Assembly (NCBI RefSeq): GCF_004010195.1 | Contig: NC_057758.1 | Span: forward strand, 8,583,011-8,647,010 | Direction of reading: 5' to 3' | DNA: 64,000 bases | Source of the DNA: Chiloscyllium plagiosum | Taxonomy: Eukaryota | Shown: positions 20,879-63,040 of the stretch, in pieces | How the letters are laid out: each line of letters opens with the position of its first letter | Numbering within the stretch: position 1 is the first letter of the stretch | The notes under the pieces: generated by a model | What the model saw: only the letters and a program-made list of their open reading frames with translations | What the model was told of the DNA's origin: nothing | Database searches by the model: none | Program-made: the position numbers and the translations under genes

Positions 20879-21167
20879 ATGAGAACAACAGACTTGAATG
20901 TTCCTGTAATGGATCATAACCTGATAACTTTAGACTGGAATGTTACAGCAATGGATCATAATCTAAGAACATCAGACTGGAATATTCCAATAATCGATCA
21001 GAATCTGAGAACAATAGACTGGAATGTTACAACAAGGCACAGGAGTTTATCCGATGGTCTTTTCTGGTTTTCCTGGTCTGGGTCAACATTATCATTGCAA
21101 ATATTCGGTGTACTGATGATTATTCAGGCAGGTTATTATCCCACCCTCGCTATTGTTGGTGTTCCTG
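20879..21167 (+). CDS. Exon 1 of GPR139-like GPCR gene B (long repeat-containing N-terminus plus start of TM1); exon 2 not found
   Basis: 96 codons ending IQAGYYPTLAIVGVP + G|gtaagt; same motif and phase-1 donor as exon 1 of gene A (YYPILAAIGVP + G|gtgagt). Confidence 0.85.
20891..21037 (+). repeat. Coding 42-nt (2 x 21-nt) tandem repeat, about 3.5 units
   Basis: gactKgaatRtt recurs at 20891, 20933, 20975 and 21017. Confidence 0.9.
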
Positions 21168-21589
21168 GTAAGTTTTTCAATCTCTATCTATTTATTACTT
21201 ACATAAACCATGTTGAACTTCATTGCCTTTTTTGTTGTCTATATCTGGTAAAGACAGAAACTATTGCATTTAGTTCCATTATAAATTCCATTCATTATCC
21301 ACAAATTCAAGACCCCTCCCTCACAAACATCTGAAATAAAACTGTGAGGATACTTTTTGAATTGAACTGATGTATGTCTTGGTTTTGTCTCCATCAGCAA
21401 ACCTGCCCATTTCCAGCTTCATAATACACTGAGTCACCACCACTGTGTCAGTGCTGTTGCTGAATAAAAAATTGCCTATGCCTTGCTAAAGGTCATACTT
21501 TACAGTTACAGTTGTCTTCTGGCCACTGCTCCAGTTACGAATAAATCGATTACAAACTGGTAATGGCTCTAAAGTAAGTTCATGATAGG

Positions 21590-21860
21590 AACACCGTGTC
21601 AGAGTAGTAATGTCGCTGGATGGGTAATTCAGAGGCACAGGTTAGAATACTAAAGATACTGTCTCAAATCCTACCACAGCTGATCGTGAACTTTAATTCA
21701 ATGATAAGAATCGAAATGGATTGAGAGTGACTTCAGACCCACAACAATGTGCTTGGCTCTGTACTGCCTTGTGGAATGTTCACAATTAAGGACAATTAGT
21801 GATGGTCATCAAATGCTGCCCTTCACAGTGATGCTGATATCCCATGAAATACCAAAAAGA
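21590..21860 (+). mobile_element. Deu-domain SINE, internally deleted
   Basis: agtagtaatgtcgctgga head; gtgacttcagacccacaacaatgtg and ggacaattagtgatggtcatcaaatgctg tail. Confidence 0.55.
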
Positions 21861-22027
21861 AACATTAAATCAAACAAAGGAAGCTACTGAAAATCTGAAA
21901 CACAAAGAAGCAAAGTGCGGGGGAAACTGAACAGGTTTGGCAGCTTCTGTTGAGAGAAAAAACAGAATTAACGTTTTCATTCCACTCATCATGCATTAGA
22001 TCTGAAAGCAGCTGGAAAATATTGTAT

Positions 22028-22205
22028 CACTCACCTATTGTACTCTATGCTACTTTCTCCCCACCCCCACCCCCCTCCAGCTTATCTCTCCATGCTTCAG
22101 GCTCTCTGCCTTTATTCTGGATGAAGGGCTTTTGCCCGAAACGTCGATTTCCCTGCTCCTTGGATGCTGCCTGAACTGCTGTGCTCTTCCAGCACCACTC
22201 ATCCA
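22028..22205 (+). mobile_element. Penelope-like terminal fragment
   Basis: gatgaagggcttttgcccgaaacgtcgattt...ctgctgtgctcttccagcacc, the reverse complement of the termini at 27380 and 57600. Confidence 0.7.
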
Positions 22206-22449
22206 AAATATTGCAATTTGTTTAGTGCAGTGAGTTGAATATGTGGAGGAATGGAGATATAGAGAAAAAGATTCAAAAAAAGCAATTGTTGATAATCAGC
22301 GAGGATGGAAATAAAATGTGATATTAATCTCGGTGTTTTTCATTTTTTCCCCATATTCCTGAGTATTATGCCCATGTAGATATCTATCCAATCCCCTTTT
22401 TAAAATGAGGTATGTTTCCTCTGTCTCTCTTCCCTGAGTGTGGTCATCT

Positions 22450-22932
22450 TCTTTCATTCATTAATGCGACATGGGTGTGACTGGCTGGGCCAATATATAT
22501 TTCCCTTTCCGGGTTGCCCATGAGAAGGTGTTGGTGAGCTGCCTTCTTGAACAATAGCAGTTCACATGCTGTTGGCTGCCAGTGCTTAGATCTGTTTGGT
22601 TTCATTTCTTTGAGACCTTGTAGTGATATAACTGAATGCTGGCTTGGTGATTTCAAAGGGCAGTTGAGGTTAATCACATTGCTTTGGGTCTGGTCTCACA
22701 TGTAGGCTTGACCACATGAAGATGACAGATTTCCCTCACGAAGGACACAATTAGTTAGGTGTTTGTTTTTATTTGACAATTGACAAACTTTCGTTAGATT
22801 GTTAATCCAAATTCTCAATTGAATTCAAATTCCACCATCTGATGAGGCGGGACTCAAGCCCTGGTCTGAGTCACGAGCTGGGTCCCTGCATTAATAGACT
22901 GGAGATAATAGTACTAGACCATCGCATCCTCC
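22450..22932 (-). mobile_element. Deu-domain SINE, near full length
   Basis: gaattcaaattccaccatctg, gggcagttgaggttaatcacattgc and gagctgccttcttgaac motifs. Confidence 0.65.
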
Positions 22933-23529
22933 ATTGTCAACTACTTCTATGGAGAACAAAACTGGTAATGTTTCAGGTCACAGGGACTGTGCGGAGCTGC
23001 AATGGTTTTTCAGCCAGGAATAGAAACTGAGGCGAGAAAGCAATTTGTTAACTCTGAGTGGGTGTGACATATATACAGAGATTTGACTTGTTCTCATCAC
23101 TGGAAAGTCAGAGGAGGTTCCCTGGATGGTTTTCTTGGCTTTGTGTTATCAGCTACTGCAATGATGTACGGAAACCTGAGGGACTGGTGTCCCCACTCTG
23201 GACAAGGTTCGGGCACTGCATTTTGGAGAGAGTATGGGTCTGCAGAGACTGCATAGGAAGGAGCAGGACACTGCACTATCCATTCTGAGATTTCCACAAA
23301 TATTTCTCAATGTTGTACCTTTTCCGTGTGCAATGTGTGAAGACATTTAATTTCAGCAATGACGTCACAGAGCTGTGAAACCTCCATCAGCACAAACTGT
23401 AGTCTCACACCAGGGAGAGGACTGTACTCAAAATGCCCATCAACTGTTTTGATTCTGGATCTTTTCAGGCAGGAGTGGGTGAAGTATCCATTTTGAGAGA
23501 GTGCAATCCTCTCATGTACTCACAAGGTG

Positions 23530-24029
23530 NNNNNNNNNNNNNNNNNNNNNNNNNNNNNNNNNNNNNNNNNNNNNNNNNNNNNNNNNNNNNNNNNNNNNNN
23601 NNNNNNNNNNNNNNNNNNNNNNNNNNNNNNNNNNNNNNNNNNNNNNNNNNNNNNNNNNNNNNNNNNNNNNNNNNNNNNNNNNNNNNNNNNNNNNNNNNNN
23701 NNNNNNNNNNNNNNNNNNNNNNNNNNNNNNNNNNNNNNNNNNNNNNNNNNNNNNNNNNNNNNNNNNNNNNNNNNNNNNNNNNNNNNNNNNNNNNNNNNNN
23801 NNNNNNNNNNNNNNNNNNNNNNNNNNNNNNNNNNNNNNNNNNNNNNNNNNNNNNNNNNNNNNNNNNNNNNNNNNNNNNNNNNNNNNNNNNNNNNNNNNNN
23901 NNNNNNNNNNNNNNNNNNNNNNNNNNNNNNNNNNNNNNNNNNNNNNNNNNNNNNNNNNNNNNNNNNNNNNNNNNNNNNNNNNNNNNNNNNNNNNNNNNNN
24001 NNNNNNNNNNNNNNNNNNNNNNNNNNNNN
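23530..24029. other. Assembly gap, exactly 500 N
   Basis: N run. Confidence 0.99.
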
Positions 24030-25433
24030 TTATTGATTTCCGTGTCAAATCATGGAAGATTTCTCTTCATTAGGCAATTCCTCTCACCAAAATACTTTAA
24101 TTGAGAGGTCATGTAGTATCTCGTTGTGTCTTTACCTTTTTTGAATCTGTCCTGCCCTTGATAGTTTTGTTTTTTTCCTGGCTAGTCCACCCAATCCAAC
24201 TCCTTCATTAGCCCAATATAATTATCATTGCTCAACACTGAAACCGTCATATGTGACTCTGTGCTTATACATTCAATCTGAGTTGAAAACTACAGCGTGT
24301 TGCTGTCACTGCGTCCAAGAGGATCCTTAACTGCAAGTTCATTTATCAATCCTTCCATGTCACATAATATCAAATCTGAAGTAAACCGTTCTCTGGTTGA
24401 ATCCATGACATGTTGCTGTCAAAAATATCCTTCTGACCGTCTAAGAATTGTTCTTCGAGGCTACCTTTGACAAGTTGATTAATTGAGTCAATATGCACGT
24501 TCATCCAACTGTTGTGCCCTTGTCACCAGCCGTCATTATTTCCGAACTCAGAAATGTGTCGGGAGAACAGCGGCTGAACTTTACTCTTCCCAAGAGGTTT
24601 CTTCTCTTGCTTTTTGTTTTTGCCTGGACTGATTTACATGCCGTTCCCTCGTGCCAATATAATTTCCGAATGCGGCCTTGATATCATACTGAACCAATAC
24701 ATCAATTCCACCTCTTGCTTCTCCTTGTCTAACTTTCGGGAATAGTGGTTGCCCTTGGACATGCCACTGACCAGTCCTGATCTCCCTGAAACCATGTTTC
24801 AGCAATCTGCATCAGGTCATACCTATTTGTCTCTTTACCTATTGTCAGCTCATCAATATTTTTCCAAAGACTTTGTACTTTTAGGTCCAAAACTTTAAAA
24901 TAGGTTTTATTGGTTTGTCTTTCCCTTCTAATACTTTTTGTGCTCTAGCTTCCTGATCTCGCACACTTCACTCCCCACATCACCAACAATGTCCAACCTT
25001 ATTTGTTTATCACTGATAATTATGCGCCTCATCTCTATCATTTATTCCAATTTCCAACTCACATTTTGAATTGACATGTTCCATTCTTCATCATGGTCAT
25101 GAGACTGGCCATGCCTGCTGTCCTATTCACCTCTACCTTCTGCTCAGTTTCTGACCTGCTGCTTTGGTTCCCAGCCTCCTGGTTTATCAGTGTAAATCCA
25201 CCCAATGTCCACTAGCAAACCGCCCCACAAAGATGTTGGTGCTCCTCCAGTTAAGATACAACCTGTCCATTTTTGAAAGCTCACTCGCCCTGGAAGAGAA
25301 CCTAATGATCCCAAAATTGAGTCCCTCACCCCTGTACTAGTTCTTTAACCACATGTTAAACTATACCACCTTCCTAATCATTACCTCTTTTCCACGTGGC
25401 CCTAGGCGTAATTCAGCCGTTTCAGCGAATTGT

Positions 25434-25466
<33 letters not shown>

Positions 25467-25522
25467 TACACATGCACACGTGCACACACAGACATACTTA
25501 TACACACAAATGCACACATGAG

Positions 25523-25553
<31 letters not shown>

Positions 25554-25670
25554 ACAAACACACATCACATTACTTTGTCGAAGAATACCAATAACCTTTT
25601 CAATAATCAGAATGACGATTGGATGGAACGAAATGGTTAAATGCAGGATGCGAACAATTAGGGCCATGAG

Positions 25671-25701
<31 letters not shown>

Positions 25702-26609
25702 ACAAACACACATCACATTACTTTGTAGAAGAATACCAATAACCTTATAAATAATTAGAATGACAATTGGATGGGACGAAATTGTTAAATGCAGGATGTG
25801 AACAATTAGGGCTACTCTTCATTAAGCAGAACGGACAAAGCTGTGCACTTATTGCAGTGCTCAAAATTATGGAAATAATGGCAGCATAAAATACGAATAC
25901 TCTGTTTCTGTTCGTTGGCATTACAGCGTCCAGGAGTCCTAGTTTCAAGATTTTCAGCACAAGAGCTAGGAGTGAGATAAGGAAAAACTTCTTTTTTTGA
26001 GATATTTGTTAGAATTTAGAATGCTCTGCCTGGGAGAGTTGTGAATGAAGATTCAATAGGGAACGGATATATATTTGTAAGTTACGAATGTAAAGGGCTG
26101 CAGAGACGGGGTGGCAAATTGGAGGAGTTTGTGAGACATTTCCAGAGCTGATGCATACACAGTGGCCCAATAACCTCCTTCTGTCCATTAAAGTTCTGTG
26201 CCCTATCATGTACAGACGCAAGTCAACATCAGTATCTGATTACTTCCTGTTGTAAATGCTGGCATATATCTGATCATATTTACTGCAGCATAACCATTTA
26301 AAATGCAAGTATTGCAATGTCAGCTTGATGATGATGTCTAATTATTACTCAGCACATAAATATTTTAAATCTTCTATCCCAACTGGGAAAACAAATATTT
26401 CTTTGCTTTGGCACAAAACAATATGTAAATGTTTGACTTTTCTCTCATAAGGAAGTATGTTAATTATTTTTATCACTAACCAAATGTCGCATTAAATGCC
26501 ATTCGTTCTTTTAAAAAATGCAAGATTTCAAATTATTGTTCGCTTCAACGTAATTTAATAAATCGTTTATTTAAGTTAATATTCACAGTGTGTGGCAATG
26601 TATTTATTT
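24030..26609 (+). repeat. Segmental duplication copy 3 (direct relative to copy 1; matches ~4754-7365)
   Basis: Begins ttattgatttccgtgtcaaatcatggaagat; has a private 148-bp tandem duplication (25517-25812) and lacks ~180 bp of copy 1 (7166-7345). Confidence 0.95.
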
Positions 26610-27329
26610 AAATACCGACAATGAGTATGTAATTGTAATCACGTCTATAGTCAGATCGCAGATTCTTTGTTCGAAATAAAATAAAATGTGCATTCTTTAT
26701 TTTTGAATCATTAAATGTTGACAGGAGTTTGTATTTTTGTTCCATAAATATAACATCAAGCTCATTGTTTTCAGAGATGACGTAATTATTGTTTGGTTGA
26801 ATAATCATACTTCACATCTTATTTTTGCGCAATTCATGAAACATAACAAATATTCGGATCATAAACTCATCACCTTGCAATCATAAGCTTCGTTGAAAAT
26901 AGATTTAAAAGGATCTGAATTCAGGCAGAGCGTTACTGAAGCTTATAGCTGCCTGTGGCACTGATTGAGATCCTGGCCTGCACTGAAATGTATCCAGAGC
27001 ACGACCACGTGATTCAGGGCAGCCATTCAATCATTATTTCACAACAAATCATTTGGAATCCACCTTGGGCCGGGGGAAACTAGCCACCAGGCTATCATTG
27101 GTCTCTATGTAAGTACAAATGCTGTCCAAATTAGACATCATTGACTCGCGAGCAACCAAGCTTTACGAAATCATTTTCAGTCAGACCCTGGCCCAGAAGG
27201 GCATATGTGAGGACATGGAGTGTCAGAAGCACACCACACAAATCACTGACGGTGAAGACATTTGGCCTATCTCCCAGACTCCATTCGTCTGCAACCTATA
27301 CAGACACTGAGTGGAGATGTTAACAAGGT

Positions 27330-28395
27330 GAAAGTGAAGACAGCAGGTGCTGGAAATTAAAGTCGTGAGGCTGCAGTTGGAAAAGCACAGCAGCTCAGGC
27401 CGCATCCAAGGAGCAGGAAAATCGACATTTAGTGCAAAAGCCCTTAGATAGCAATAAGAATGGGATCCATGAGGGTGGAGTGATAAATGGGAGTGGTTGG
27501 GGCTGGGGAAAGGTAACTGAGAGTGCGATAGTTGGATGAAGGTGTGGGTAATGGTGATACAGCGGAGAGGAGGATGTAGTGGATAGGTGGGAAGGAAGAT
27601 GGACAGGTGGGCACGGTGACTCACAGTGTCAGGGACCAGTTTCGATTCCAGCCTCAGGCAACTCTCTGTGTGGAGTTTGCACATTCTCCCACAAATCCTC
27701 ATGAGTTTCCTCCGGGTGTTCCAGTTTTCTCCCACAGTCCAGAGATGTCCAGACCAGGGGAATTGGCCCTATTAAATTGCACATAGTGAAAGGTGCATTA
27801 GTCAGAGAGAAATGGGTTACTCTTCAGAGGTTTGGTACGGGCTTATTCGGCCAAAGGGCCTGCTTCCACTCTGTAGGGAATCTTAAAAAAAAAACCCTTT
27901 CCCACTTTGAATAAAAAGATGGGACGTATCACGAGGGCGGTGCTAAGCTGGAAGTTTGGAAATGTGATAAGGTTGGAGGAGGGGAAGTGTGGAAACTGGT
28001 GAAATCCACATTGATGCCATGGGGTTGGAGTGTCCTGAGGTCCAAGATGAGGTGGTAAGGAAGGAGCGATGCATGAAGCCCTGGACCTGCATGTCCTCAG
28101 CAGAGTGGGAGGGGGAGGTGAAGCGTTCAACCACGGGGCTGTGGGGTTGCTTGGTGCGGGTGTCCCAGAGATGATCTCTGAAGTGCTCAGCGAGTAGAAG
28201 TCCTATCTCCCCAACGTATAGAATACCACATCGGGAGCAACGGATACAGTCGCCGACATGTGTGGAATTGCAGGTGAAACCTTGATGGATGTGGAAGGAT
28301 CTTTAGGGCCAGTGGGAAGAGGTGTGGGCACCTTCCTGTGGTGGCAGGGGAAGGTGCCTAGAGAGGAGAGTGAATTTTTGCGGACCTGACGCGCA
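27330..28395 (-). mobile_element. Penelope-like element fragment (GIY-YIG region and terminus) with a nested SINE
   Basis: VERFTSPSHSAEDMQV peptide; colinear with 57555-58455. Confidence 0.75.
27608..27894 (+). mobile_element. HE1-like SINE nested in Penelope
   Basis: gcacggtgactca head, ctgtgtggagtttgcacattctcccc core, ggccaaagggcctgcttccactctgtagggaatc tail, then an A run. Confidence 0.8.
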
Positions 28396-28404
28396 CTACG
28401 TATC

Positions 28405-29345
28405 TTTTATCCTGCATTCTGCATTCATATTTGATTGTCCAGAACGATTCGCTTCAGGCTTTTCCAGGTTGAAATCCACTTATCAGCCCAGTTATTCCAG
28501 TCCATGTCCCATTGCAAACTACAACAACCCTCCACACTATCCACAATTCTACTGACCTTTGTTCCACCGACAAATGTAATAGCCCACCCTTCCAATTCCT
28601 CATCCAAATCATTTATAACAACCAGAAACAGCAGAGTTCCCAGAATCGAATTCTACAGAACACCACTGTTCACCGAGCTGCAGACTGAATACTTCCCATT
28701 TACTATCACTTTATCATTTATAACAACCACAAACAGCAGAGTTCCCAGAATCGAATCCTACAGAACACCACTGTTCACCGAGCTGCAGACTGAATACTTC
28801 CCATTTACTATCACTTTGTGTCTCTATGGGCCAGTCAATTCTGTACCCAGACAGACAGGTTTCTCTGTATCCCCAGCCTCGTTACTTTCTGAATGAATGT
28901 ACCCTGGAGACCGTGATCAAACACCTTTTTAAAATCCATGCACTCCGCATCCACTGCTCGACCTTCTTCAATGTGTTTGATCCTATCCTCAATGAGTTCC
29001 ATAAGCTTTGGGAGGCATGGCTTGCCCTTCACAAAGTCATGCTGACTAATTCTAATCAAGCTATGATTTTTCAAGTAATCATAAGTTCTGTCTCTCAGAA
29101 TCCTCTCCACGACTTTGCCCAATACTGATGTAAGACTGACTGGACTGTAATTCTCAGGACTATCCTAATTCCCATTCCTGAACAAGGGACTAACATTTGC
29201 AACCCTCAATCATCTGGCACTTCTCCAATGGAGAGTGAATACGCAAAGATCATCGCCAAAGGCGCAGAAATCTCTTCCCTCTCTTCCTGTAGGAACCTAG
29301 GGTGTTTACCCTCTGGCCCAGGGGATTTATCTATTCTTATGTTTG
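28405..29345 (-). mobile_element. CR1 ORF2 RT fragment
   Basis: GKVVERILRDRTYDYLKNHSLIRISQHDFVKGKPCLPKLMELIE...MDFKKVFD. Confidence 0.85.
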
Positions 29346-29879
29346 TACTTCAATTAGTCTGTCCTCCAGCTGAAATTGTCTACTCCCTGTCCAATAAACT
29401 GATTGATTGTTTTCTATTTCAGGGCTATATAACGTGCTGCTTCACTGAGCATGTATGATCCCAATATCCTGTGAACCATGGAATGAAAAGTATGGGAAGG
29501 CATGAATGCGCTCCTGATGAAGGGGTGATGCCCACATCTTTGACTGTCTTGCTCCTCAGGTGTTGCCTGACTGGTTTTTCGTTTCCAGTGCCACACTTTT
29601 CGACTCTGATCTCCAGCATCTGCCGTCCTCTTTTTCCCTATGATTGACGGCTGTCCCCTCTGCACACTGAGCAGGGAATTAATCAGCAGAAACACATTGT
29701 ATGTGGAGCAGACTGCTCAGTTCTGGAAAATTGCATTACATTAATACATCTATTCAAAACAAAATTGCATTTCAACAAATACTAATTGAGTCCCAGAGTT
29801 ACAGTTTTGGTACATGAATTGGGCAGTTTGATAAGGAACAGTGAATGACTGGAGAACTCCGAGGTACAGAGTATTCCAG

Positions 29880-31500
29880 GTGTTATATTGCAGGGTGGAT
29901 GTGCTTTACCTTAATGCTGGGAATGTTATTGGACAGACAGATGTGATATTGGAACAAGGTGGCATGTGGAAATGCGACATTGTTGCCATTACAGAGATGC
30001 GTTTGAGGGAGGTCAGGGCTTACTACTCAATGTATTGTGGCACAAGAACTCTCAGCAGGACAGGAGAGGGGTAAAATAGGAGGTGGTGTTGCATGATTAG
30101 TTATGGAGTAGAAGTTACTACAGTAAGGAGGGGCGATATCTTGGAAAGATCTTCTAATGAGGCTTGGTTGTTAGAGCTCAGGATCAAAACCATGGCAGAG
30201 GCACTGCTGGGAACATATTATAGATCCCCAGATAAAAGAAAGTACAGGAGCAGATATAAAACCAATTTACTGAGTTGTGTAAAAACAACAGGTTTATTAT
30301 ACACAGGCATTTCATTTCCAAGCATTAATTCGGGCAGTGAGAATATTTTAAGAGGGGAAAGATGCCTTTAAATTTATTGCAGAAATCTCCTTGTATCATC
30401 ATGGAGCAGATACAACAATGGGTGTGGCAGTGATGTGCCTCCCTGCGAGGAATGAAGCCAGTCAGGATATTGCAGGCAGGATTGGGAAAGCAGCATACGG
30501 CCAGTGACCATGACATCATGCATTTTATGTTTGGTAAGGAAAAGATTTTAAAAATGCACTATCTGGTAAATAAAAGTTTTTTGGATTGGGGAGACCGATT
30601 TTATGAAGAAATATGAGGGAAACTGTCCAGAATACAGTGGCTGCTGCGTGAAACTGAAGCAGAACACCGTGTGGCGGTGGGTTGGGGGATCACTTGATCA
30701 AAATGGAATTAATGAGAGTGTCCGCCCAACGTGTTACACGAAAGATGAAAATTTGGAAAACAAGCCCAGAGAACCTCGAGTGTCAACAAAAAAATCAGAA
30801 CAGAATTAAAAACGAAAGAGAAGCTTAAAGCAGGTACAAAGTGCAAAGTGAGCAGGTCAATGGATGCACGAAATGAATTTTGAAAGAGTCGGGCTAACCT
30901 TAAAACTTCAGGAGAAGAGCAGAAGGGGAATCGTGATAAAATATTTATGGGTAAGATTAACAAGAATCCAACGACATCATATCAGTTTATTAAGAGGAAG
31001 AGGGTAACACCAGATAGAATGGGGAGTATTAGAGACAAAGGGGGCAACCTGTGCACGGAGCAACAGGATATGTTAACCACGGGCTTCATGTCGGTCTTCA
31101 GTTGGGAGAAGCAGTTCCTGGATTCAGGGAGAGTAACAGTGTGCCCTTGAACGATTTGGTACAGAAGCCAAGGAAGAATTGGAAGTTTATGCTGGTTAAG
31201 ATGAGGAAGAAGAGCACAAGCTCTGACATTTTTTTTATTTTTCTCTTGTCTCTGGCCACAGCGAAGGTGTGATGGGACTTGATAACATCTTACGTTGGCA
31301 CAACTCTCGCATAGAGTGCGAGAAATAAGGCATGGGATTAAAGACCACCAAGTCTCCCAACAGTGAGAGGGCAACAATTGTAGACAATTCTGAGGGCTGT
31401 TGAGGTTAGATCATTAAACATCTTGAAGGCTGAGGCAGACTGATTATTAAACAAGGATTTGTTCTAGGGAAAATGCAGTCAAGTAGAATGGGGATTCTCA
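29880..31500 (+). mobile_element. Old degraded CR1 ORF2 (APE endonuclease and linker)
   Basis: LYLNAGNV...DIVAITEM, LLGTYYRSP, KNPTTSYQFIKRKRVTPDRMGSIRDKGGNLC. Confidence 0.7.
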
Positions 31501-32031
31501 AAATAAATATAACGGAATTGAACAGAAAAGCAAAGTCAGTGCGCAGATAGCAAGAATGTTGCTTCAATGTCTAATGCCATTCTTTTTCCAACAGCCCTGT
31601 GTTCACTGGAACATAACTTCTCTCCCTTTGGAGTGATACATAGTTTGGAACGCAATCGACGGATTCAAGGATTTCATTAATGCAGTAGGAATAGACAGAA
31701 AGGACGAGGGGACAGCGACAACGCGGGTTGGCTGTTGGGGTGAATATTTGCCTCAGCGCAGTCACCACCAGAAGAAGGAAGACTCAGAAAGAGACCCTCC
31801 AAGTACAAGTAATACGGTGCTCTAGAGAGCAGGTCGTCATGTGCTTGGTGTCAAGGAATGTCTAAGGCACAAACATTGCATTACTGTAGTGTCTCCCTTC
31901 TTCCCTAAACAAAACTAAATGTGGTGGAGTAGAGAAAATGCAGTTGGTAGCAGAGTAAGTAGTAAGTCATTGGTTTGAGAGGCTTCAGACAGCAGCAGCT
32001 CAGAAAAAAAGTACAGGCAAGCTCAAATAAA

Positions 32032-32849
32032 NNNNNNNNNNNNNNNNNNNNNNNNNNNNNNNNNNNNNNNNNNNNNNNNNNNNNNNNNNNNNNNNNNNNN
32101 NNNNNNNNNNNNNNNNNNNNNNNNNNNNNNNNNNNNNNNNNNNNNNNNNNNNNNNNNNNNNNNNNNNNNNNNNNNNNNNNNNNNNNNNNNNNNNNNNNNN
32201 NNNNNNNNNNNNNNNNNNNNNNNNNNNNNNNNNNNNNNNNNNNNNNNNNNNNNNNNNNNNNNNNNNNNNNNNNNNNNNNNNNNNNNNNNNNNNNNNNNNN
32301 NNNNNNNNNNNNNNNNNNNNNNNNNNNNNNNNNNNNNNNNNNNNNNNNNNNNNNNNNNNNNNNNNNNNNNNNNNNNNNNNNNNNNNNNNNNNNNNNNNNN
32401 NNNNNNNNNNNNNNNNNNNNNNNNNNNNNNNNNNNNNNNNNNNNNNNNNNNNNNNNNNNNNNNNNNNNNNNNNNNNNNNNNNNNNNNNNNNNNNNNNNNN
32501 NNNNNNNNNNNNNNNNNNNNNNNNNNNNNNNNNNNNNNNNNNNNNNNNNNNNNNNNNNNNNNNNNNNNNNNNNNNNNNNNNNNNNNNNNNNNNNNNNNNN
32601 NNNNNNNNNNNNNNNNNNNNNNNNNNNNNNNNNNNNNNNNNNNNNNNNNNNNNNNNNNNNNNNNNNNNNNNNNNNNNNNNNNNNNNNNNNNNNNNNNNNN
32701 NNNNNNNNNNNNNNNNNNNNNNNNNNNNNNNNNNNNNNNNNNNNNNNNNNNNNNNNNNNNNNNNNNNNNNNNNNNNNNNNNNNNNNNNNNNNNNNNNNNN
32801 NNNNNNNNNNNNNNNNNNNNNNNNNNNNNNNNNNNNNNNNNNNNNNNNN
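32032..32849. other. Assembly gap, 818 N
   Basis: N run. Confidence 0.99.
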
Positions 32850-33936: not shown

Positions 33937-33962
33937 TGAGTGTGTGTGTGTGTGTGTTTGTC

Positions 33963-34005
<43 letters not shown>
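33937..34005. repeat. (TG)n microsatellite
   Basis: Read directly from the sequence. Confidence 0.9.
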
Positions 34006-34008
<3 letters not shown>

Positions 34009-35574: not shown

Positions 35575-35582
35575 TATAAGTA
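35575..35582 (+). promoter_or_regulatory. Possible TATA-like box of GPCR gene A
   Basis: TATAAGTA 80 bp upstream of the ATG; position is the only support. Confidence 0.25.
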
Positions 35583-40484: not shown

Positions 40485-40489
40485 TCACT

Positions 40490-43900: not shown

Positions 43901-44794
43901 TATAGTGTTGGGCAACTTATCATTTGCTGTGCAGAGAACATGAAAATGATGGAAGTAAAATAGGTGCACTGGATTTTTGTACGGTTCTGGCCGAACAGCA
44001 AAGTATCCTGATGGCATTTTATGCAATGTTATATGAGAAAGCATTGGTCCCATTCAAAATGAAAATGCTGACTGTCTCGTCTAAGAAATATCAATGGGCT
44101 ATACGGGGCAGAGACAGTAGGGGTTAAGAGTGTTATTGACAGGAAGGGCAGGAAGGGAGGGAATAAGGGAATAGAAATGGAAGGCAAAACAGAGCATGTG
44201 TCACGGACAATGTACAGCACACTATGCATGAAATGTAAGAAATGAAGTTTTCCACGAGCATATGCAGAGGGACTTTCTCTGTCCCGACGATTTCTTTGCC
44301 GTTCATTCTGTACTTATCATTCTGTTTCTCAGCACCAATGTGTTCACCTTATTTCTTACCTTTCACTGCCTCTGTCTGTTCTTCTGTCCAACTCTCCCTG
44401 TGTCTGCCCTTCGACTCCCCCTTCTTTCCTTCTCTCTCACACGCAGTTTTCTGTCTGCTGCTCAGTGAGGGGAAGGCGGGTGCTGTTATGCACGTGTCTA
44501 GACATAGCGGGGCTTTTATCAATACAGAGCGAGACTTGGAGGAACTATTGTGCATGATGAAGTCTTACAGTGGTGTGAAATTAGAAGGAGTGGTAAGGTA
44601 CGAATCCAAGATTAAGCATCATTTGGATTTGGATAAAATATTTGATAACGAAATGTTTGATGGAATGATAATTCGAGACAGGGGAATATTTGGGAGGCTG
44701 CACAATGTATGAGAAAGGGCAATATTCAGTGATAGACGATATTGAGGAGGGGATGAAAGTTGAGGTTGGGGTGCAAACTTTGGAGATTTTCGGA

Positions 44795-45840
44795 AAATAT
44801 CTCGAAACATACGGAGGCATGTGAGTGAGGGTAATTTGGTGGTATTGATCAGAAATTAGCCAGCTGAAACAAGACAGACGGTGCTGGGTGGTGGTAAATG
44901 TGCATCCTGAATTTAGATTATTAGTGGTGTACAACAAGGATCTGTTTTAGGGCCAATGCTGTTCTTCATTTTTGTAAATAACCTGGATAAGTGTGGAGAA
45001 GGATCGGATAGTACATTTGCTGATGACAAAAAGGTCGGTAGAGTTGTGGACTGTGCTGAAGAATGTTCCAGGTTACAGAGTGGCATAGGTGAGCTGTAGT
45101 GCTGGGCGGAGAGGTGGTCAATGGAGTTTAATGTGATAAGTATGAGGTGGTTCACTTTTGAAGAAGCAACAGAGTTATTGCCTTATGGTAATTTTCCTGT
45201 TCGTGCGGAAGAGCAAAGAGATCTCGCCTGTCATGTACATAGAAGCTTGAAAGTTACAAAACAGGTTGATAGTGTTTTCGACAAGGCATACGCAGTTTGA
45301 CTTTTATTGGTGAAGAGACTAAGTTTGGAACCATGAGGGCATGTCGTAGCTGTACAATCTCTGGGGCAGACGCACTTGGAGTATTGCTACAGGTCTGGTC
45401 ACCGTCTTTTCAGAAGAATGTGAAAGCATTGTAAAGGTTTCAGAGCAGATTTACTCTGAGGGAAAATCTTATCTGTAAAGGCTGAGGGGCGTGAGGCTGT
45501 TTCGTTCGAGAGAAGGAGGCTGAGAGGCGAATTAATTGAGACATATCAGATGATCATTGGGTTCAATAGTCTGGACAGTCAGACGCTTTTTCCTCAGATA
45601 GTGATAGCTATTATTAAGGGACATAACATTAAATTGAGGGATAATAGATATGGAACAGATATCTGAAGTAGTTTCCTCACTCAGAGGCTCGGGACGTGGA
45701 ACACCTTGATTGCAACAATATTAGATTCGCCAAATGTTAGAGGTTTTAAATGGTAATTTGATGCACATATGGATTTAAATGAAGTAATGTTGGTTTGATG
45801 CGATTCAGATTGCTTCCACAGATCGGCGAAACATCGACAT
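44795..45840 (+). mobile_element. CR1 RT-to-3' fragment
   Basis: ggtgtacaacaaggatctgttttagggcca (GVQQGSVLGP) and tttgctgatgacaaaaag (FADDK). Confidence 0.85.
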
Positions 45841-46574
45841 CGCCTTAGGGACACCATGCACAGATGATTGACAAGGATATTTTAAGTGATTATTAACTTC
45901 AGCCATGAGGATAAATTGAAGAAGTTGGGCCTAATCTCCCGGGTAAGAAGAAGGTGAAGACGAGATCTGGCAAAGGGTCAGGGAGCAGGGTTGGACTGAG
46001 TAGGCAGCAAGAATTTGTTCTTGCTCAATAAGGAATAAGATGGGCACAGATTTAAATTGCTGCGCAAGAGAAGCAATGCTAAAATGAGGAAGACATTTAT
46101 TTTCTCCAAGCAAGTATACAGTGTGTAGAAAATGCTGGCTGGAAATCGTGTCACGGCACTTTCAAGTGAGATATTGGCTGAAGGTCATTGGCTAGTTACT
46201 GGTATGCCCAGCTATTAATATGGAATCTCCCCTGAGTCTGTGCCTGTCCGGACAACGCTGTTATCAGAATCGGCGATCTCAGACGAGAGGGTGATCTCGG
46301 GGTTCACGGAAAACTGACCACATTTGATGCTTGAATTGATTGCGGAGGCTATGTGAGGTCTGACTCCTAAACTTACCCGTTCAAACCGGCTGCACTGTTT
46401 ACCATTTCTTGTCCATAAACCATTTGTCATCAGACGCTGAGAGAACACTGGGCGAGAGTTAACATCCCTAATAGTGAGTGAGAGAGTGAAGCAGAGTTAA
46501 CGTTCCCTGTCTAGTTCGACTCCCCGGCAGACTTAAACTCAGCAGACCTAACAGGAACTGCGTGTGGTAGAGGC

Positions 46575-46596
46575 GGAGAGAGAGAGAGGAGTTGTG

Positions 46597-46630
<34 letters not shown>

Positions 46631-46640
46631 GTGACAGATA
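46575..46640. repeat. (GA)n/(GACA)n microsatellite
   Basis: Read directly from the sequence. Confidence 0.85.
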
Positions 46641-46814
46641 GAAGGATTCATGGATTCAGAATAACCACTTGGATGAAAGCTCATTGCGAGTGCACAGGAA
46701 TTAGGTTAGAATTGGATCAGACATGGGGCGTATTTGGTTGAGACATAGAGAATACTGACAGTGTGCGATGGAATGGCCATGAGAAGTTGTTTCCACTGGT
46801 AGGAAGTGGAGAAA

Positions 46815-47518
46815 TGTCCTGTAGCTTTAAGAAAGTTAAAAACTAGCTGAACTACCTGACAGCATCAAGTGTTCTGAACAATTTACAATGTGACATTTAG
46901 TCCAGCGGCTAGTGTAGCTGTTTGACTGAAGACAAAAAGAAATCAAAATCGAATTCGGCCACACAGTTTAACTTATGCCACAACATATCAAATTCCAAGC
47001 AATTCCGAATTGGGTAGTTGGACAACATTAATACCAATGAAATGATCTGATGCCTTGGGGTCGGAAACTGAATAAAAATACCACAGCTGGGGGAGAAATA
47101 CCAAAAACAGCAACAGATGTCGGCGGCTCGTGGGAACTATGTGAAATGTACCTGTCTCCAGAAGGATTTGGCACAGTAAGAAATAAAGGTCAGCACCGAC
47201 CTGAGGAGCAAACCTACAGAGGAATATATGCAGAACATTTTCAACCGTTGGCTGGCTTTGAAATTCGATTTTTTAGCAAGTCTTTATCGGGGTTTTATTG
47301 GACGACTACTATAGAAGGTAAATAAAATATTGGTGAGATGAAGGAGTTGTAAATAGCTGCAAGTTAATTATACTCTATTATACTTTAAGAAATAAAGTTG
47401 TTTATTTTTACTTTAACTAGTTCTTGTCCTCTCGAAATTTTCGCAGATCACAACAAGCATTAAATATTTTCTGTGTTGCTGGATTAAATTAAGCAGTGGG
47501 TTCCCCCTTGACCTAACA
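46815..47518 (+). mobile_element. Probable solo LTR inserted in a CR1 3' fragment
   Basis: 704 bp from TGT to ACA, with AATAAA at ~47391; flanks ggagaaa / tcttcagccagcggg rejoin as a CR1 motif; TSD unconvincing (gaaa/gtat). Confidence 0.6.
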
Positions 47519-47624
47519 GTATCTTCAGCCAGCGGGTACTGACTCTATGCAGTGGATTACTGCACAAGGCTGGACATGCCAAGTGATTGAGTATATTTAA
47601 ATCCTGAAAGATTTTTCCCTTATC

Positions 47625-48005
47625 ATTAAACTCTGACCATTAAGTCTGGACTCTGTCACCATCGGGAACATACTTCTGCATCCAAGCTGTTAAGTAGTGT
47701 TGGAGTTTTGTAGCTTTCTCCGAGATCTCTAGTGAATACAATTCTAAGCGACTCTGATGCCCTCTCTTTGCCTGAGCTCGGATGGCTACGTTGTCCATAT
47801 TTGAACTTGTGTCATTCACTGTCTGTGCATTCGGAAGTGAAAGTGTATTGGTTGTATCTGGCAGTGACAAGTCGATGATCATGCACTTGTATGAATTGTT
47901 TTCTTCCAGTTGTCCAATGTAGCCGTGCTTTCACAGTCTTTGCGCCGTGTTCTGTACATGACATCTGTCCTGTTGAATGTGTGTGTATCGGGTCTTTAAC
48001 CTTTT
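47625..48005 (-). mobile_element. Degraded Penelope GIY-YIG fragment (second family)
   Basis: RVKDPIHT, RTDVMYR, and NMDNVAIRAQAKRGHQSRLE resemble the Penelope endonuclease C-terminus. Confidence 0.55.
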
Positions 48006-48799
48006 GAGGAGATCATGGATGTCTTTATTGGTTTAACCTTATTATTTTTCCCTTATAAGACAGAACGATAATCTGAATAGCAGATGAAGGTTAATTTTAA
48101 TAAATGCAAGATGTTGCATTTTGCAAATGTAAGATTGCTAGTTTTCCTTTGTTCGTGTCAATCTGTTCACCCTTCCACAAACATCAAGGAAGATTCATAA
48201 CCAGACCAGGAAGACTAAAGAAAGCTCAGTGAAACATTGAACTCAACTTCAAATCATTATTAAGACAGCAACCGGCGAAAGGAACAGAGAAGATGGGGAG
48301 ATTATTTTTTGTCACAGTGAATGATGCTGGTTACCTGAAAAGGTAAGAAAACGAAGTTTCAATATCCTGTCAGTTTCATTCTAAAGTTAGAAGTGTATCT
48401 CCACATGAAACAAGAAAGGTACTCCCAGTTTTGATTGGTCGAGAAATAAAATATCACTCTTAAAGAGCTAGTAGAAGCACATAAGGCGAACAGCCTTTCA
48501 CTGCGTGGAAAGACATGACGCAATCTTGCACAAAGCTAACCTTTCTGATCCGAAAGGACACTGCTCATAGAAACTACTTGATACAATTAACAAACAACCA
48601 AACCTGGGTTTAACAATCAGAACTGAACACAAGTTCTGCCCAGGAGTACATACTGTTTTGTTGTAATTAATATTTGGTGTTGCCGATGTTGTACTGTGTG
48701 GGGGCGGTGGTGGTGGTGGTGGTGGGGGGGGGTGCAACGATGTCAAAAATTGCAACATCCCAGGTTATAATCCAACAGTTGAACGGTCCGGTCCAAGGG

Positions 48800-49521
48800 A
48801 GTGTTGCTGACCAAAGAGATCTTGAAGTGCAGCTTCTTAGTTCCTTAAATGTAGAATCGCAGGTAGTTAGGGCAGGGAATAAAACTTTTGGTATGCTTTC
48901 TTTTATTGATCAGAGTATTGCGTTTCGGAGTTAAGAGTTAATGCTGAGACTGTAGAGGACGTTAATTAGGCCACTTTTGGAATATTGTGTCCAATTTTGT
49001 TCTCCTTCCTGTCGGAAATATGTTGAGAAACTTCAAAGGGTTCACAAATGATCTACAAGTTTGCCAGGATTGGAAGATTTGAGCTCGAGGGAGAGGCCGA
49101 ATAGGCTGGAGCTCTTTTCTCTGGAGAGTCGGATGCTGAGGGATGACCTTATAGAGCTTAATAAAATTATAAGGGGCATGGATAGAATAAATAGTCAATT
49201 TCTTTTTCCCAGGTGTGCAACAGTCTGGAATAAGAAAGCATACTTTAGGTTGAGATGTGAAAGAAGTAAAAGGGACATATGTGCCATCGTTTTCTCACAG
49301 AAGGTGGTGCCTGTGTGGAATGAGCTGCCACAGGAGGTGGCGGGTTCTGGTTGAATTGTATCATTTAAGCAGCATCTGAATCTGTATATGAATAGAAAGG
49401 GCTGAGTGGGAAATGTGGCAAGTGCTGGTAAATGGCACTGGATTAGCTTCGGATATCTGGTCGTCATGCATGAGTTGGACAGAATGGTGTGTTTCCTTTC
49501 TGTAAATCTCTGTGACTCTAT
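48800..49521 (+). mobile_element. CR1 3' fragment with tail
   Basis: PGLEDLSSRERPNRLELFSLESRMLRDDLIELNKIIRGMDR...FSQKVVPVWNELPQEV; tail tgtaaatctctgtgactctat. Confidence 0.9.
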
Positions 49522-51759
49522 CTGTCAGGACTCGTAATTGAGCCAGATTAAAAACCCTTCAGGGAACTCCCTTCTCTGAGTTCTCTCTGACCGACCTCGT
49601 TGTAATCATTACACTCGTTCTAAGCCATTCATCCTTCAAATATTGTCCGAGGTGATACTCAAACTCTGCTCATGCGATATAAGTGAATGCCACGGATTCA
49701 TGCCCCGCCAGTTGAAGTGGCGATTTACACAGATTTACTAAATTAAAGCCCAGTTACGGTGTGGTAGGGAACCATTCGAACGGATGAACTATCCCTCAGT
49801 GCCAATCTCATTTCTTTTTCATCATATGCCTTGCATATCTTTTCTATTCAAATCACAATTCAATGCCACTTTTAAAGCTCTCAATTGAAATATCATATTT
49901 GCAGGTATTGCATCTCACACACTGATTCCTCATTGATTGAATAATGTTTTCCTCATCTCACTCTGGCTTTGAGAATTTCTTCTTGTCGAGTTCAAAGTTA
50001 AGCATTCAATTCCATCGGGTAATGCACAATGTGAATACATAGTAGGCCGATATTTCAGAAGTTACAGTGTGTAAAGGCAGCTGGATCAAACTTTAAAAGC
50101 TCTCGTCGGACCACTGCTGCAACTTTCTGAATGGTTTTGGACTCCTTAACTAAGGAGTCTCAGCCGTGATATTCAACTGGATTCATGAGCATTTGTACAT
50201 GATCTAGTTAGGGTAAGATTCACAGAAAGAGATACATGGGAGAGACTTTTTTAAAAAAAACGTCACTCGTAGGATATAGGCAGTTGGTTGTGTCAGCATG
50301 TATTAACCGTCCCTAATTTCAGTACATTCATTATATTCAGGTCCAAATATATTTGACTATTTTCTATCTGTGCAGGTATTCTGAAATAATAAACAATGTT
50401 TCCATCTAACACGACGTCTCTGTCTCTTTTCACGTTTCATCTTTTATTTTCCAAAACTGACAATCTGACAGTGATTGCCTAATGCCCACTGAATTTGAAT
50501 GGGAAATTATACAATTCCTTTATCCTTGCACCTGGGTTATTTTTATTGTCGAGCCTACGGAGAAAATGGAAAATCGTGGAGGTTTGTGGTTTGAGTTGGT
50601 AGTGTTAGCGGTGGCAATATTTGTATTCTAAATCTGCCTAAAACACCAAAAGAAGAGTAAATTATCGAGAATGCTGGAAATATGATATAAGCCATGCATA
50701 CTGTCCCAGTAAAAGGTTATCGACTGGATTCTTTTTCACACCAGTGAATTTACTGCACCTAATGAGTATTTCCAACTTTTCTGATGTAGATTTCTGGATA
50801 AATTGTGGGTAGACCATGCCAGGTTCCAGAGCGCCAAGTCCAGAGTTTTGGTCAATTCCTACTCACATTCCTACTGCATGCATTTTTGTCTTTCTCACTT
50901 CACTTTGTCCACCATTTAACACTGACCATTTTATCCGTCTGTCTCTCCATTACTCTCTGCATTTGGAAGTATGGCAAGGAGTGGAAATGTACAGTGAACA
51001 GTAGTTCGTACATGACTACTCTTCCATACCTGCTTTTAGAAAATTTAAATAGATATTCCTGTAGCGGATATATTATTTCTGTAACATTACACACCACTTG
51101 GTTTTGCATGTTTGATCGAGGTTTTAGTCCGTACATCGTGGAATTTACAACTCGGTTCCTGAGACAATGACGATTTCAAGATACAGTCTGCAACTGTGGA
51201 GTTACGATTGGGCGTTGCAGCTTGGTCAATTTGTTGGTGGTTTGGGAAGTTGAAAAATAATGTGAAAATGCAATATTGTCGTGAATTCTTTCCATCGTTT
51301 TCCTAAAGCAAATATACATACTCTGTTCCCAGAGCTTGTGTCTTTCATATAATGTTCTTTAGTAGTAGAAAGATGATGCCAGTGTGTCAATTGCTATAGA
51401 TTTGCTCGTGAAATTCCAATCAGATCAAGGTTACAAGTCCGCGTGTAAACCATTTCAGGAAATGGTTTTATCGTCTATTCTAAATATCTAAATATTGGCC
51501 GTTATTTGCAATGAAGCAACTGCAGCAGATAACAAAATCAATGATAAGGCTGACAATGATCGACTTATTGTCACACTTCTTTCGTTACATCTTCTTGTGA
51601 ATAATGTTTACAATTTACGGCAATGAAACGGTAACTTCAAATAAAATAAAACACCCTTCTGAATCGAAATTAAAGACGGTGTACAATTACTTAAGTAGAT
51701 AGTCGATAATGTGTATATTTAATCATTTATATTTCAAAATCGCTTTCTCTGTTGCAGTA

Positions 51760-52230
51760 GTCCGATGGTGGGACAGATGAATGTGGAGAGATTGGACCAG
51801 TTAGCATTATATTCATTGGGCTCTATAAGATTGTGTGGATGGATGTGCGAGAAACCTTTAAAATTTCTAACAGGGTTTGATCGGGTAGACACAGAAATGA
51901 TGCTCCACATGCCTGGGAATGTAGGGCTAGAACTCTATGTTCTAATAATAAGGGATAGGTCATTTAGGACTGAGGTGAGAATAGATTATGTCAGTCAGAG
52001 AATGAAGAGCTTGTGGAATTATCCACAACAGGAAACTTTTGCGATCGAAACATTGAATACATTCAAGATATATGTTACTATTTTAACTGTAAAAATAGCA
52101 AAACGTATTTCGATAATGCAGGATCACAGTACAGATTTGGATGGTCAGCTATGGAAATTTGTATTGTTAGACCACGCCCAGGAGGCTACATGGCCCACTC
52201 CTGCTCCGATATCCCCGATTTCTATGCTTC
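51760..52230 (+). mobile_element. CR1 3' fragment
   Basis: ERLDQLALYSL...LTGFDRVDTE...FRTEVR...SQRMKSLWN. Confidence 0.75.
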
Positions 52231-54348
52231 CAAGATACAGCACATTTATTTTTATGTCTTTTACAGTGTCTGTCTCTCAAGCATAAGTAATTTATTTTTT
52301 TGCGTTCTTCAAATAAAAATAAAATACTAAGCGCTTATTAGAATTTGGAGTGAGTTTATTTTATTGCCTGATTTTTCGGTTACTCACATTAAATAATAGT
52401 CACACCAGAGCTTGGTAAGGACTTCACTCCAGTTTTCATTACATAAGGTAATATTTAACATGTCAGGTCATGCTTGTGTTTAATATTTAACGTACTTACC
52501 AAACTGCATTATTTCCAAGTTAATCCTTTCTGCCAGAGTCTGGAAAGAAAGTCGTTATCCTGCTTAATGAATCAAGTAGCTTAATTCGAAATGGTCTTGA
52601 ATCCAAAATATTCAAGACATTCGAAATGGTCTTGAATCCAAAATAAAACATTTCTTCCGAATTCCTCTCTGTTGGAAATAAATGAAAAATAGTGGATTAC
52701 CTCTTTTTTTGATACTGTTATTTTATATGTCGAGTGATTACGATGCACAAATGTACTTTCGATTCTTGGTGGACCATTGAATCTACTCGTATTTGGCGCA
52801 ATTTTTGCTGTCTGCAATCTGAGTGCATTGATCAACATCCTTTGAAAAAATATTTTATTCTGTCATACGAAAATGTTACACAGAGCAAGTTAAGTTCAGA
52901 TGCATCGTGCAAGCGATTTGATGTTTCTTTTCCACTGGTGCAAGCATTCATTCTGTAATATATCTGTTGCTACATAGAATGTCGTTGCACAACATGACGG
53001 TGAGAATAATCTTCCAATGATTTAGGCAAGATGTGTTATTTTATATCTACGGTTGTTTTTATACAGCATCTAGCATTTACCTTAATCTTTATCCACGTTT
53101 AATAGTAGGCTGTGCGTATAAAATGGTCTAACCATAAAGATGCAGTTTGTTTTTATTTTCATTCACTATGACTTTCTGTCCCTGAGTGCTTCTGCTGTCA
53201 ATAAGGTGCAGACGACATTCCTGAAGAATATTGAGTAGGCACGCAGAGTAAATATCATATCGTCTGTGTAATGGAGAGTAAGAAGTAATGAAAGTTAATT
53301 CTCTTCAGAGAATTAATTGGTAAACGTAGCCACGTGACACCAACATGAGCCTTGGAGAAAGTCTCTGACTTTAGACCCTTTCAGACTTAAAACAATGTAT
53401 TAAATGCAATCATATTCCTATTCACCACCATCTCTGTTTTCCTCCTTGTGTTAAATTGCATTCAACAATTTTCCTCTGCGTGTAAAAGAGAATAAAACGA
53501 AATGTGCAGCAACGTTGATTTCTTCAGCAAGAACTTTGGTCCATCGCTATTTAGTTTTGGTTCTTTCCTTTCCTGCCAAATCAAAACTTCTCAGAAAGTA
53601 CACTTCCCATAAATAAGATCAGAGAATGATTGTTTCAATAAATCATGGAAACCATGTGATATTCAGTCTACCGCAGTAATTTTCATTTATGCACTATCCT
53701 GTTTCTTCCAGTTGAATATTTTTAGTTTTGTTGACTAAAGCGTTTTACACTTCTGCACTTATACCCAGTTCCATAATGCTTTTTATATGCTTTTATCCCA
53801 ACTTTTTGTCTATCACTTCTAAAATTGTTTGAGAACATGTGATGAGCATAAATGTTGACCAGTGGACTGACAGATTCTGGTCAGTGTCATAACCGGTACA
53901 GAACCTAACCATTGTGTTTCTTCTTACCTGTACTTCTTCAATATTATTCCTCATTGTATCACGTCCTGTGAAATTATGTGCATTTGGCAATGCAGCTTAT
54001 GTTCAAAGCCTGTATTTCACATTTTTCTGTCCATTTATACTCTCGTTGGTTCCCAGCGTCTACCCCTACATGAGAACCCTTAGTCATAAGATTATTTTTA
54101 CTTCAAAAATGACCAAAATCTGGGAAACAGACTTGTAAAACAATAAGTGCTGACATATTTCCTCCAAAAAATCAAGTAATGATAGAAGTTAATGACTTAT
54201 CTTATTCAATTCAGTTGTAGAGTACATCATGGAATCATAGTTCTGATTATTCTGTAGCGATTGTTGGTTTTTGTAATCATATTCAATTGATGCTTTCTTT
54301 GTGGCAGCAGTCAAAATTAATGGCAACGTTCTGCGATATTTATTTCAG

Positions 54349-55110
54349 TTACCATAATGGCCATCATAATTCTGTATCGCGGAAATTGTGGCCTCTCTAA
54401 ATGCATCACGTTCTACTTGTTGGTAATGTCAGCAGCAGATCGAACACTGGTCATTTTCAATGTCCCACTGAAAAGGATTAACAATATTCATTTTCCAGTT
54501 ACATTTCTGTACATCACTCCTCTGTTTGTAGTTAGAATTGTTCTGTTTCTTATGACCATGGACTGTTCTATTTGGTTCACGGTTGCTTCGACATTTGATC
54601 GTTTTATAGTCATTTGTTGTCAGAAACTGAAGTCAAGATACTGCAACATGAGAATGCTGACATCGGTTATTGGAGCTGTGAGTGTTGTCAACTGTTTAAG
54701 CTCAATTCCCTGGTACTTCGTATTTGTCCCTGCTTTTGTTACTAATAATGTTCCATGATTTTGTATCTTAGCACCAGGACATTATACTGCATTCGTCTGG
54801 ACAATCTATGAGTAGATGCATAGTATTATTACACCTTTGCTTCCAATTATATTGATTCTTGTGTTCAACGTTCTCACTGTCAGGAATGTAATAGTCACCA
54901 TTAGAGTCGGCCTGCGTCTTCAGGACCATAAAAAAAGACGGTAGAATCGATCCTGAAAATGTAACCCGTAGAAAATCCTTAATTTTGCTCTTCATTTTAT
55001 CTGCTAATTTCATATTGTTGTGGATGACAAATATAGCACATTCTTTGGCTGGCAAAATGTTATTGTAGCTATGAAGACAAGACATGTAATCATCCAATGC
55101 AGACTCGATG
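54349..55110 (+). pseudogene. GPR139-like GPCR pseudogene C (exon 2 homologue, TM7 missing)
   Basis: tatttcag acceptor, phase 1; IIILYRGNCGLSKCITFYLLVMSAAD...DCSIWFTVASTFDRFIVICCQKLK; stops TGA 54756 and TAG 54813; frameshift before DPENVTRRKSLILLFILSANFILLWMT. Confidence 0.9.

Positions 55111-59109: not shown

Positions 59110-63040
<3,931 letters not shown>

Follow-up and report, generated by a model that had tools for sequence, protein, structure and literature searches.

We report a family of two-exon genes for G protein-coupled receptors (GPCRs) of class A, three pieces of which, here called A, B and C, lie in a 64,000-nt stretch of the Chiloscyllium plagiosum genome (G000:C49:8583011-8647010, hereafter the window; the genome searched comprised 3.56 Gb). 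Counted together, copies and fragments of the family exceed 1,300 in this genome, and it is present in sharks, rays and a chimaera. As a receptor repertoire it is real and apparently undescribed, the window being a partly decayed slice of it. A 31-base motif of the second exon, from the end of transmembrane segment 3 (TM3), had 1,342 exact genome matches and two first-exon motifs had 1,580 and 1,598, with none for the reversed-pattern controls; these exact counts miss divergent copies, and C itself lacks the exon-2 motif. In a protein search, 130 of 7,510 candidates were scored and all 130 had E < 1e-86. The 120 closest proteins listed for A were all from sharks and mostly carried the RefSeq name "probable G-protein coupled receptor 139". 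Twenty non-boundary representatives came from sharks, rays and the chimaera Callorhinchus (one protein, P0150), two having no readable organism; the ray genera with family members were Mobula, Rhinoraja, Amblyraja, Leucoraja and Hypanus. An earlier interpretation of the window, made from its letters alone (the sequence-only reading), had proposed a cartilaginous-fish expansion, and with at least 1,342 motif copies and this range of species the proposal is borne out. The objection that there might be only a few copies genome-wide clearly fails.

The birth-and-death turnover suggested by the same reading was also found. We classified the first 100 of the 1,342 exon-2 motif copies, all on contigs C1-C8, as open (35), broken (44) or interrupted by gaps (21), and 71 of the 100 belong to a branch that we call HIP after its motif. 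Broken copies make up 44 of the 79 that could be scored. Extrapolation from 35 of 79, with exon 1 ignored, suggests very roughly 500-600 copies with an open second exon. Copies in and around the window sit in duplicated blocks of 91-97% identity. A large clustered family combined with birth-and-death turnover is a feature of chemosensory repertoires.

In order to describe selection we estimated omega, the ratio of nonsynonymous to synonymous substitution rates (dN/dS), with our own codon-model code, and obtained Nei-Gojobori counts of nonsynonymous and synonymous change (pN and pS). For the HIP branch we set two distant sequences aside from 25 open copies and used the other 23 (the median DNA identity across all 25 was 85%). 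Here dN/dS was 1.07 in the extracellular loops, 0.26 in the transmembrane (TM) segments and 0.33 on the inside, and pN/pS was 1.06 in extracellular loop 2 (ECL2) and 1.31 in ECL3, compared with 0.15-0.44 in the TM helices. In the comparison of M2a with M1a, twice the log-likelihood difference (2dL) was 435 in favour of M2a, under which 5.9% of codons had an omega of 7.5, and all 16 positively selected sites with a posterior above 0.95 were located in ECL1-3, which comprise 71 of the 297 codons. A split-half test that does not depend on a tree, in which sites chosen from one half of the sequences were scored in the other, gave pN 0.54 versus pS 0.34, a result consistent over 40 of 40 splits. 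Among 22 B-type first exons, the membrane-proximal segment of the N-terminus had pN 0.42 and pS 0.39, and TM1 had pN 0.13 and pS 0.34. Across 149 members, ligand-facing residues are diversified on a conserved frame, as would be looked for in a repertoire. The repertoire-like diversification that had been predicted is therefore seen in the HIP branch, with its 16 of 16 sites in loops, and not in the branch of A, which gave no such signal.

One alternative is that amplification was mostly neutral, with genes riding in duplication-prone blocks around a small functional core. Duplications of 91-97% identity are tangled together in the window and its flanks, the A-, B- and C-like copies that they contain are in many cases broken, the share of broken copies is high (44/79), and in the first 9 Mb of contig C8 first exons outnumber second exons by 56 to 11, all of which neutral amplification would explain. 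However, a dN/dS of 0.26 in the TM segments, an omega of 7.5 restricted to loops, an omega of about 0.33 in the A branch and the persistence of the family in sharks, rays and a chimaera make neutral amplification an explanation that we consider quite improbable.

We propose, giving it about an even chance, that the family serves as a receptor repertoire with which external chemical cues, probably of a peptide-like kind, are sensed. The data show that copies spread through segmental duplication and often die, that the TM and signalling frame is kept by purifying selection, that the pocket residues vary between members and that the extracellular loops of HIP, the largest branch sampled, are positively selected. 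In the proposal each member would bind its own ligand set at the rim of the pocket, the ligands would be peptides or peptide-like, and the receptors would signal through a G protein in sensory cells of the nose, mouth, skin, gill or gut. The vertebrate OR, TAAR, V1R/ORA, V2R, FPR and MRGPR genes form birth-and-death multigene families with variable ligand sites; our family resembles them in organisation and differs in belonging to another receptor lineage. Another parallel is found in nematodes, where srw receptors, in the part of the source available to us, derive from the myosuppressin/FMRFamide receptor group, show species-specific expansions and gene loss and are proposed to sense environmental peptides (PMC2576165). 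GPR139 and GPR142 are given a common origin with myosuppressin/FMRFamide peptide receptors in excerpts of a further study (PMC8514136). A related peptide-receptor group, lineage expansion with loss and proposed external peptide sensing are thus common to both cases, whereas srw is a separate invertebrate expansion and gene A matched 7tm_1 only.

Several points weigh against the sensory proposal. The two halves of the split-half test are related to each other, and the site models are open to inflation by gene conversion among paralogues. In the A branch, the 25 open copies (28 of the protein-search set of 30 loci, less three with stops) lacked positive selection, with omega 0.31-0.35 in all regions. 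About 49 of the 130 protein-search matches lie on small contigs and may include alleles, and assembly error may have raised the share of broken copies. Olf/EBF-like sites occurred in 2 of 9 A-type upstream regions where 1.2 were expected, which is no enrichment. Positive selection throughout the loops is no worse a fit to immune receptors than to odorant receptors. The chemosensory use of the family and its type of ligand are predictions from sequence. In the available portion of a catshark study, the 50 top genes of a brain and olfactory library included no GPCR, a weak test for a family of many genes (PMC11979771). Homeodomain sites numbered 21 versus 8.8 expected in the nine A-type upstream regions, whose sequences are non-independent, and taken together the promoter motifs of these loci did not speak for olfactory use. 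No RNA data set was listed as carrying the A region. Single-cell RNA reads, about 2% of one run, gave 0 matches to the A region, a sample too small to judge expression.

Confinement of positive selection to the outer loops (omega 7.5), together with the variable N-terminus, would also fit an arms race, as in an immune or barrier repertoire with which leukocytes or epithelial cells would detect microbial or parasite peptides in the manner of mammalian formyl-peptide and Mas-related receptors. The high pseudogene load and the lack of Olf/EBF enrichment in our small promoter test are in keeping with this, but the A branch, having no positive selection, is not, and we regard such a role, the main rival to the sensory proposal, as rather unlikely. 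Selection at the ligand face might alternatively mark reproductive or self-recognition receptors (for pheromones, seminal peptides or gamete signals), possibly in the gonad or reproductive tract. Hundreds of copies are more than is usual for gamete receptors, and we judge this improbable, even with two published observations, both from partly available texts, on its side: the wider clade contains the insect sex-peptide/MIP receptor (PMC8514136), and testis expression is reported for some V2Rs of the catshark (PMC11979771).

The closeness to GPR139/142 that the sequence-only reading had asserted was not supported. Gene A is 22% identical to GPR139 (19-22% over GPR139 and GPR142), compared with 31.8% to an orphan receptor that we call L1 and 30.5% to an unnamed salamander gene (P0221, P0391, P0394). 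A GPR139 motif had one match in this genome, in a separate gene; its product shares 84% identity with human GPR139. We built a 193-row FastTree, in which one sequence (L115) sat in the wrong reading frame and was excluded afterwards, and a 40-row IQ-TREE. In both, the family and the salamander gene formed one clade (IQ-TREE support 100/99). In the IQ-TREE this clade grouped (95/89) with L1, with L095, a further GPR139-like gene, and with P0248, a protein without a name, and GPR139 and GPR142 formed a separate 100/100 clade without the family. Orthology of the family to GPR139 or GPR142 was ruled out, given its position outside their clade and the presence of a separate GPR139. A tree constrained to place the family next to GPR139/142 was 17.35 log-likelihood units worse (approximately unbiased test, p-AU 0.06), so that a deeper placement with L1, L095 and P0248 is favoured by the sequences but not proven.

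The salamander gene has no one-to-one match in this genome (best 37%), and in the best tree the chondrichthyan genes were monophyletic without it, weakly (70/18). It is likely to be the pro-orthologue, the seed of the expansion, in a many-to-one relation. The one-to-one orthologues in bony vertebrates that would have told against an expansion are replaced by a likely many-to-one counterpart. L1 (L094, L234, L235; G000:C26:36599040-36601743) is a conserved two-exon GPR139-like orphan with one clear orthologue here (64%). Its relatives occur in sharks, coelacanth, sturgeon, teleosts, amphibians and reptiles, with no mammal among the 120 matches listed, and some of its models in the databases have fused TMEM183A names. 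L095 (G000:C98156:21305-22210) is a long-branched single GPR139-like gene that belongs neither to L1 nor to the expansion. Orthologues of GPR139 are matched by Pfam PF10324, which we take to be the Srw model. GPR139-related orphans of fish and coelacanth have been named GPR210A/B, with a third subtype (Rinne et al., 2019; PMC6504862, available in part); sharks go unmentioned in the main text of that article as available, and "Orphan 139-like" appears in a review table, likewise available in part (PMC5207463). We did not succeed in matching the GPR210 names to L1, L095 or the salamander gene. The GPR210 or Orphan 139-like receptors resemble our family in being non-mammalian GPR139-related orphans, and L1 shares the intron and, with the salamander gene, the 30-32% identity to A; the family lies outside the L1 clade, however, and L1 differs from it in having a single clear orthologue in this genome and in keeping an arginine at position 6.51.

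That position belongs to the amino-acid site of GPR139. According to partly available studies, GPR139 requires F109, H187, W241 and N271 (PMC5430874), and its R244 (R6.51) binds the carboxyl group of Trp/Phe in docking and is needed for activity (PMC8807744). None of 149 family members holds all five residues, and A has G, H, W, H and A at F109, H187, W241, R244 and N271. GPR142, L1 and L095 retain R244, and the salamander gene has a K there. Within the family 18 different residues occur at 6.51; just 14 of the 149 members have R or K, and A has H. L1 has C, S or G at 6.48. Sensing of free aromatic amino acids in the manner of GPR139/142 is therefore highly improbable for the family, and this part of the earlier interpretation is not supported. 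It can appeal to a W at 6.48 in 138 of 149 members and an H at 5.43 in 56 of 149, to a wider clade shared with GPR139, to a grouping not formally rejected (p-AU 0.06), and to the position of the intron. The phase-1 intron in TM1, at G-x-P/x-N, is common to A and B (donors), L1 (donor) and the GPR139 of this genome, whose acceptor is at the same place, as the sequence-only reading had stated for GPR139. GPR139 and GPR142, orphans of class A that L-Trp or L-Phe activates (PDB 7vug, 9m42), share a wider clade, this intron and the seven-transmembrane (7TM) fold with the family, on which RefSeq puts the GPR139 name; GPR139 differs in being a separate conserved gene here whose Trp/Phe-site residues the family does not keep. 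GPR139 also lacks the cysteines in TM3 and ECL2 and the longer ECL2, both of which the family has, with the cysteines at least 90% conserved and an ECL2 hairpin in the model of A.

The model in question, an AlphaFold2 prediction for exon 2 of A, has 7TM (predicted local distance difference test score, pLDDT, 87), and A matches Pfam 7tm_1 (PF00001) with E 1.1e-25 and 91 bits against a cut-off of 30.5, its sole Pfam match. The match and the predicted fold together indicate that A-type sequence is not a chance product. Across the family the R of FDR is invariant and the N and Y of the TM7 motif are at least 90% conserved, as in class A GPCRs. When the model was compared with known structures using VIA-align, class A structures matched with Z up to 25.5, the best matches being peptide receptors (Y4R, Z 25.5, root mean square deviation (rmsd) 3.2, 268 residues aligned); GPR139 (7vug) gave Z 23.9, rmsd 3.2 and 258 aligned. 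Together with the conserved cysteines and the ECL2 hairpin, these matches point to the build of a peptide receptor. Likeness of a modelled fold to peptide receptors is by itself no proof of function.

All three pieces in the window are on the + strand. Exon 1 of A (35655..35724) has 23 codons plus one base, ends in IGVP with a phase-1 GT donor and has a TATA-like box about 80 bases upstream. B is a first coding exon of the HIP branch (20879..21167), open over 96 codons and ending in VGVP with a phase-1 GT donor. C is a pseudogene second exon of another branch (54349..55089), with stops at 54756, 54813, 55066, 55072 and 55087 and a frameshift at an A run (54930-54936); it is 37% identical to A across 232 aa. 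Profile scans of the whole window in six frames found no family piece beyond A, B and C, and no first exon for C. The sequence-only reading had seen three same-strand paralogues; the pieces are there, with A intact only conditionally and B from the HIP branch. Its motifs shared by A and C (GNC.LSKC, DCS.WFTV..TFDR..VICC and others) are present in both, its call of C as a pseudogene was correct, and the exon-1 motif that it gave for A and B as YYP..LA is shared in a form one residue shorter, YYP.LA. On the best reading A is possibly a working member of a slower branch, with B and C left over as debris from duplication. B and C as one gene with A nested inside it was ruled out, as B and C come from different branches.

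Whether A is intact depends on a 485-bp tandem duplication (36261-36745 and 36746-37230, with 8 differences) that covers the first half of its second exon. Copy 1 (36261..36745, + strand) holds an acceptor and the first 473 bases of the exon, and copy 2 with the remainder (36746..37662, + strand) ends in TGA at 37660-37662. If the first AG is used (exon from 36273), a frameshifted product of 208 aa results; if only the second AG is used (exon from 36758), exon 1 is joined into a class A GPCR of 324 aa. The description of A as intact is thus right if the duplication is skipped or is an assembly join, and wrong if the first acceptor is used. A weaker acceptor in copy 2 was ruled out, as pyrimidine content is 0.71 at both acceptors. 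The base shared with paralogues is in copy 1 at 7 of the 8 differing sites. The window has six two-copy tandem repeats (18131-39387, 105-485 bp, 94-99% identity). All six occur singly in paralogous segments, which suggests assembly joins, and we lean somewhat towards a join over a real duplication in A. Against this, such repeats are far denser in the window (6 in 62 kb) than elsewhere on contig C49 (1 in 279 kb). We found 1 in 233 kb of C8 and 3 in 51 kb of small contigs; their scarcity elsewhere on C49 and C8 does not support them as an assembly-wide feature. Among 24 of about 190 pieces of contigs from runs X1, X5 and X7 (X5 and X7 likely DNA), none bridged the copy junction, and the closest copy of A on another contig (C97904, 98%) enters a gap before reaching it.

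B had been called an orphan exon, and no HIP-like second exon was found downstream of it on the + strand over 200 kb, gaps excepted. Assembly gaps downstream of B at 23530..24029 (500 N) and 32032..32849 (818 N) might conceal one. All 11 blastp matches of B were of the HIP branch, unlike A and C, and 10 of them run on into a HIP-like second exon, the other being a fragment; in database proteins, then, B-type first exons are joined to second exons of the HIP type. Of four open second exons of this type on C8, three had their nearest first exon 22-30 kb upstream, two of them having more than one, and the fourth had none within 63 kb. The excess of exon-1 over exon-2 motif matches on this contig (56 versus 11, G000:C8:1-8961990) is not genome-wide, and 14 of the 71 HIP exon-2 copies are gapped. 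Most simply, surplus first exons would be duplicated debris or the result of gaps at exon 2. On paper the B exon splices in frame to exon 2 of A. Cartilaginous fishes might have several hundred working genes in this chemosensory family, well beyond the size of their known smell and taste families, and in its largest branch excess first exons, B included, might be spliced with their differing N-termini to shared second exons, producing combinatorial receptors as protocadherin clusters do; we consider this unlikely. A 42-bp repeat of 3.9 copies (20871..21035, + strand) overlaps B and encodes a 14-aa N-terminal unit, the number of which ranges from 0 to 10 across relatives, and the B exon contains two N-V-T sequons. 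In a B-type first exon elsewhere (L333, G000:C7:112692409-112695442), 10 near-perfect 14-aa units form a coding minisatellite that sets the length of the N-terminal stalk.

The duplicated blocks extend well beyond the receptor exons. Positions 11044..43392 form a segmental duplication, mostly 91-97% identical to contig C101594, where B-like and A-like copies carry one stop each. Positions 41857..58124 are duplicated in inverted orientation (94-96%) at about 8.663-8.680 Mb of C49, with a second broken C copy some 30 kb downstream. B-like exons were also found on C49 and C93924. A 5.9-kb inverted repeat (96%, 1088-13744) is centred on the gap at 7367-7866, and part of its arm recurs at 24030-26590. 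Decayed LINE-like fragments, whose translations have motifs of the reverse-transcriptase and endonuclease kind, lie at 3994-4236, 10597-10839, 18280-19080, 30075-30368, 48671-49351 and 60285-60983. Other tandem clusters of rhodopsin-type GPCRs appeared among 7tm_1 matches on C37 (about 14.9-16.8 Mb, long matches, some with stops) and C29 (about 31.7-32.1 Mb).

Our literature search, which had little reach into subscription journals, found no description of the expansion. GPR139 is unmentioned in the available part of the catshark study (PMC11979771), as are GPCRs in that of another paper (PMC10620051). From sources likewise available in part, cartilaginous fishes have a relative paucity of GPCRs (PMC8455134), and in the catshark the OR, ORA and TAAR families number just 5-8 genes apiece (PMC6368271), small sets that are at odds with the reputation of cartilaginous fishes for smell. 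The orphan receptor that salamanders retain, the likely starting point of the expansion, would be convenient for work on ligands. With over 1,300 copies that go by the automatic name "probable GPR139", perhaps 500-600 of them with an open second exon, the family would alter the picture of GPCR paucity, whether its members serve smell or immunity.

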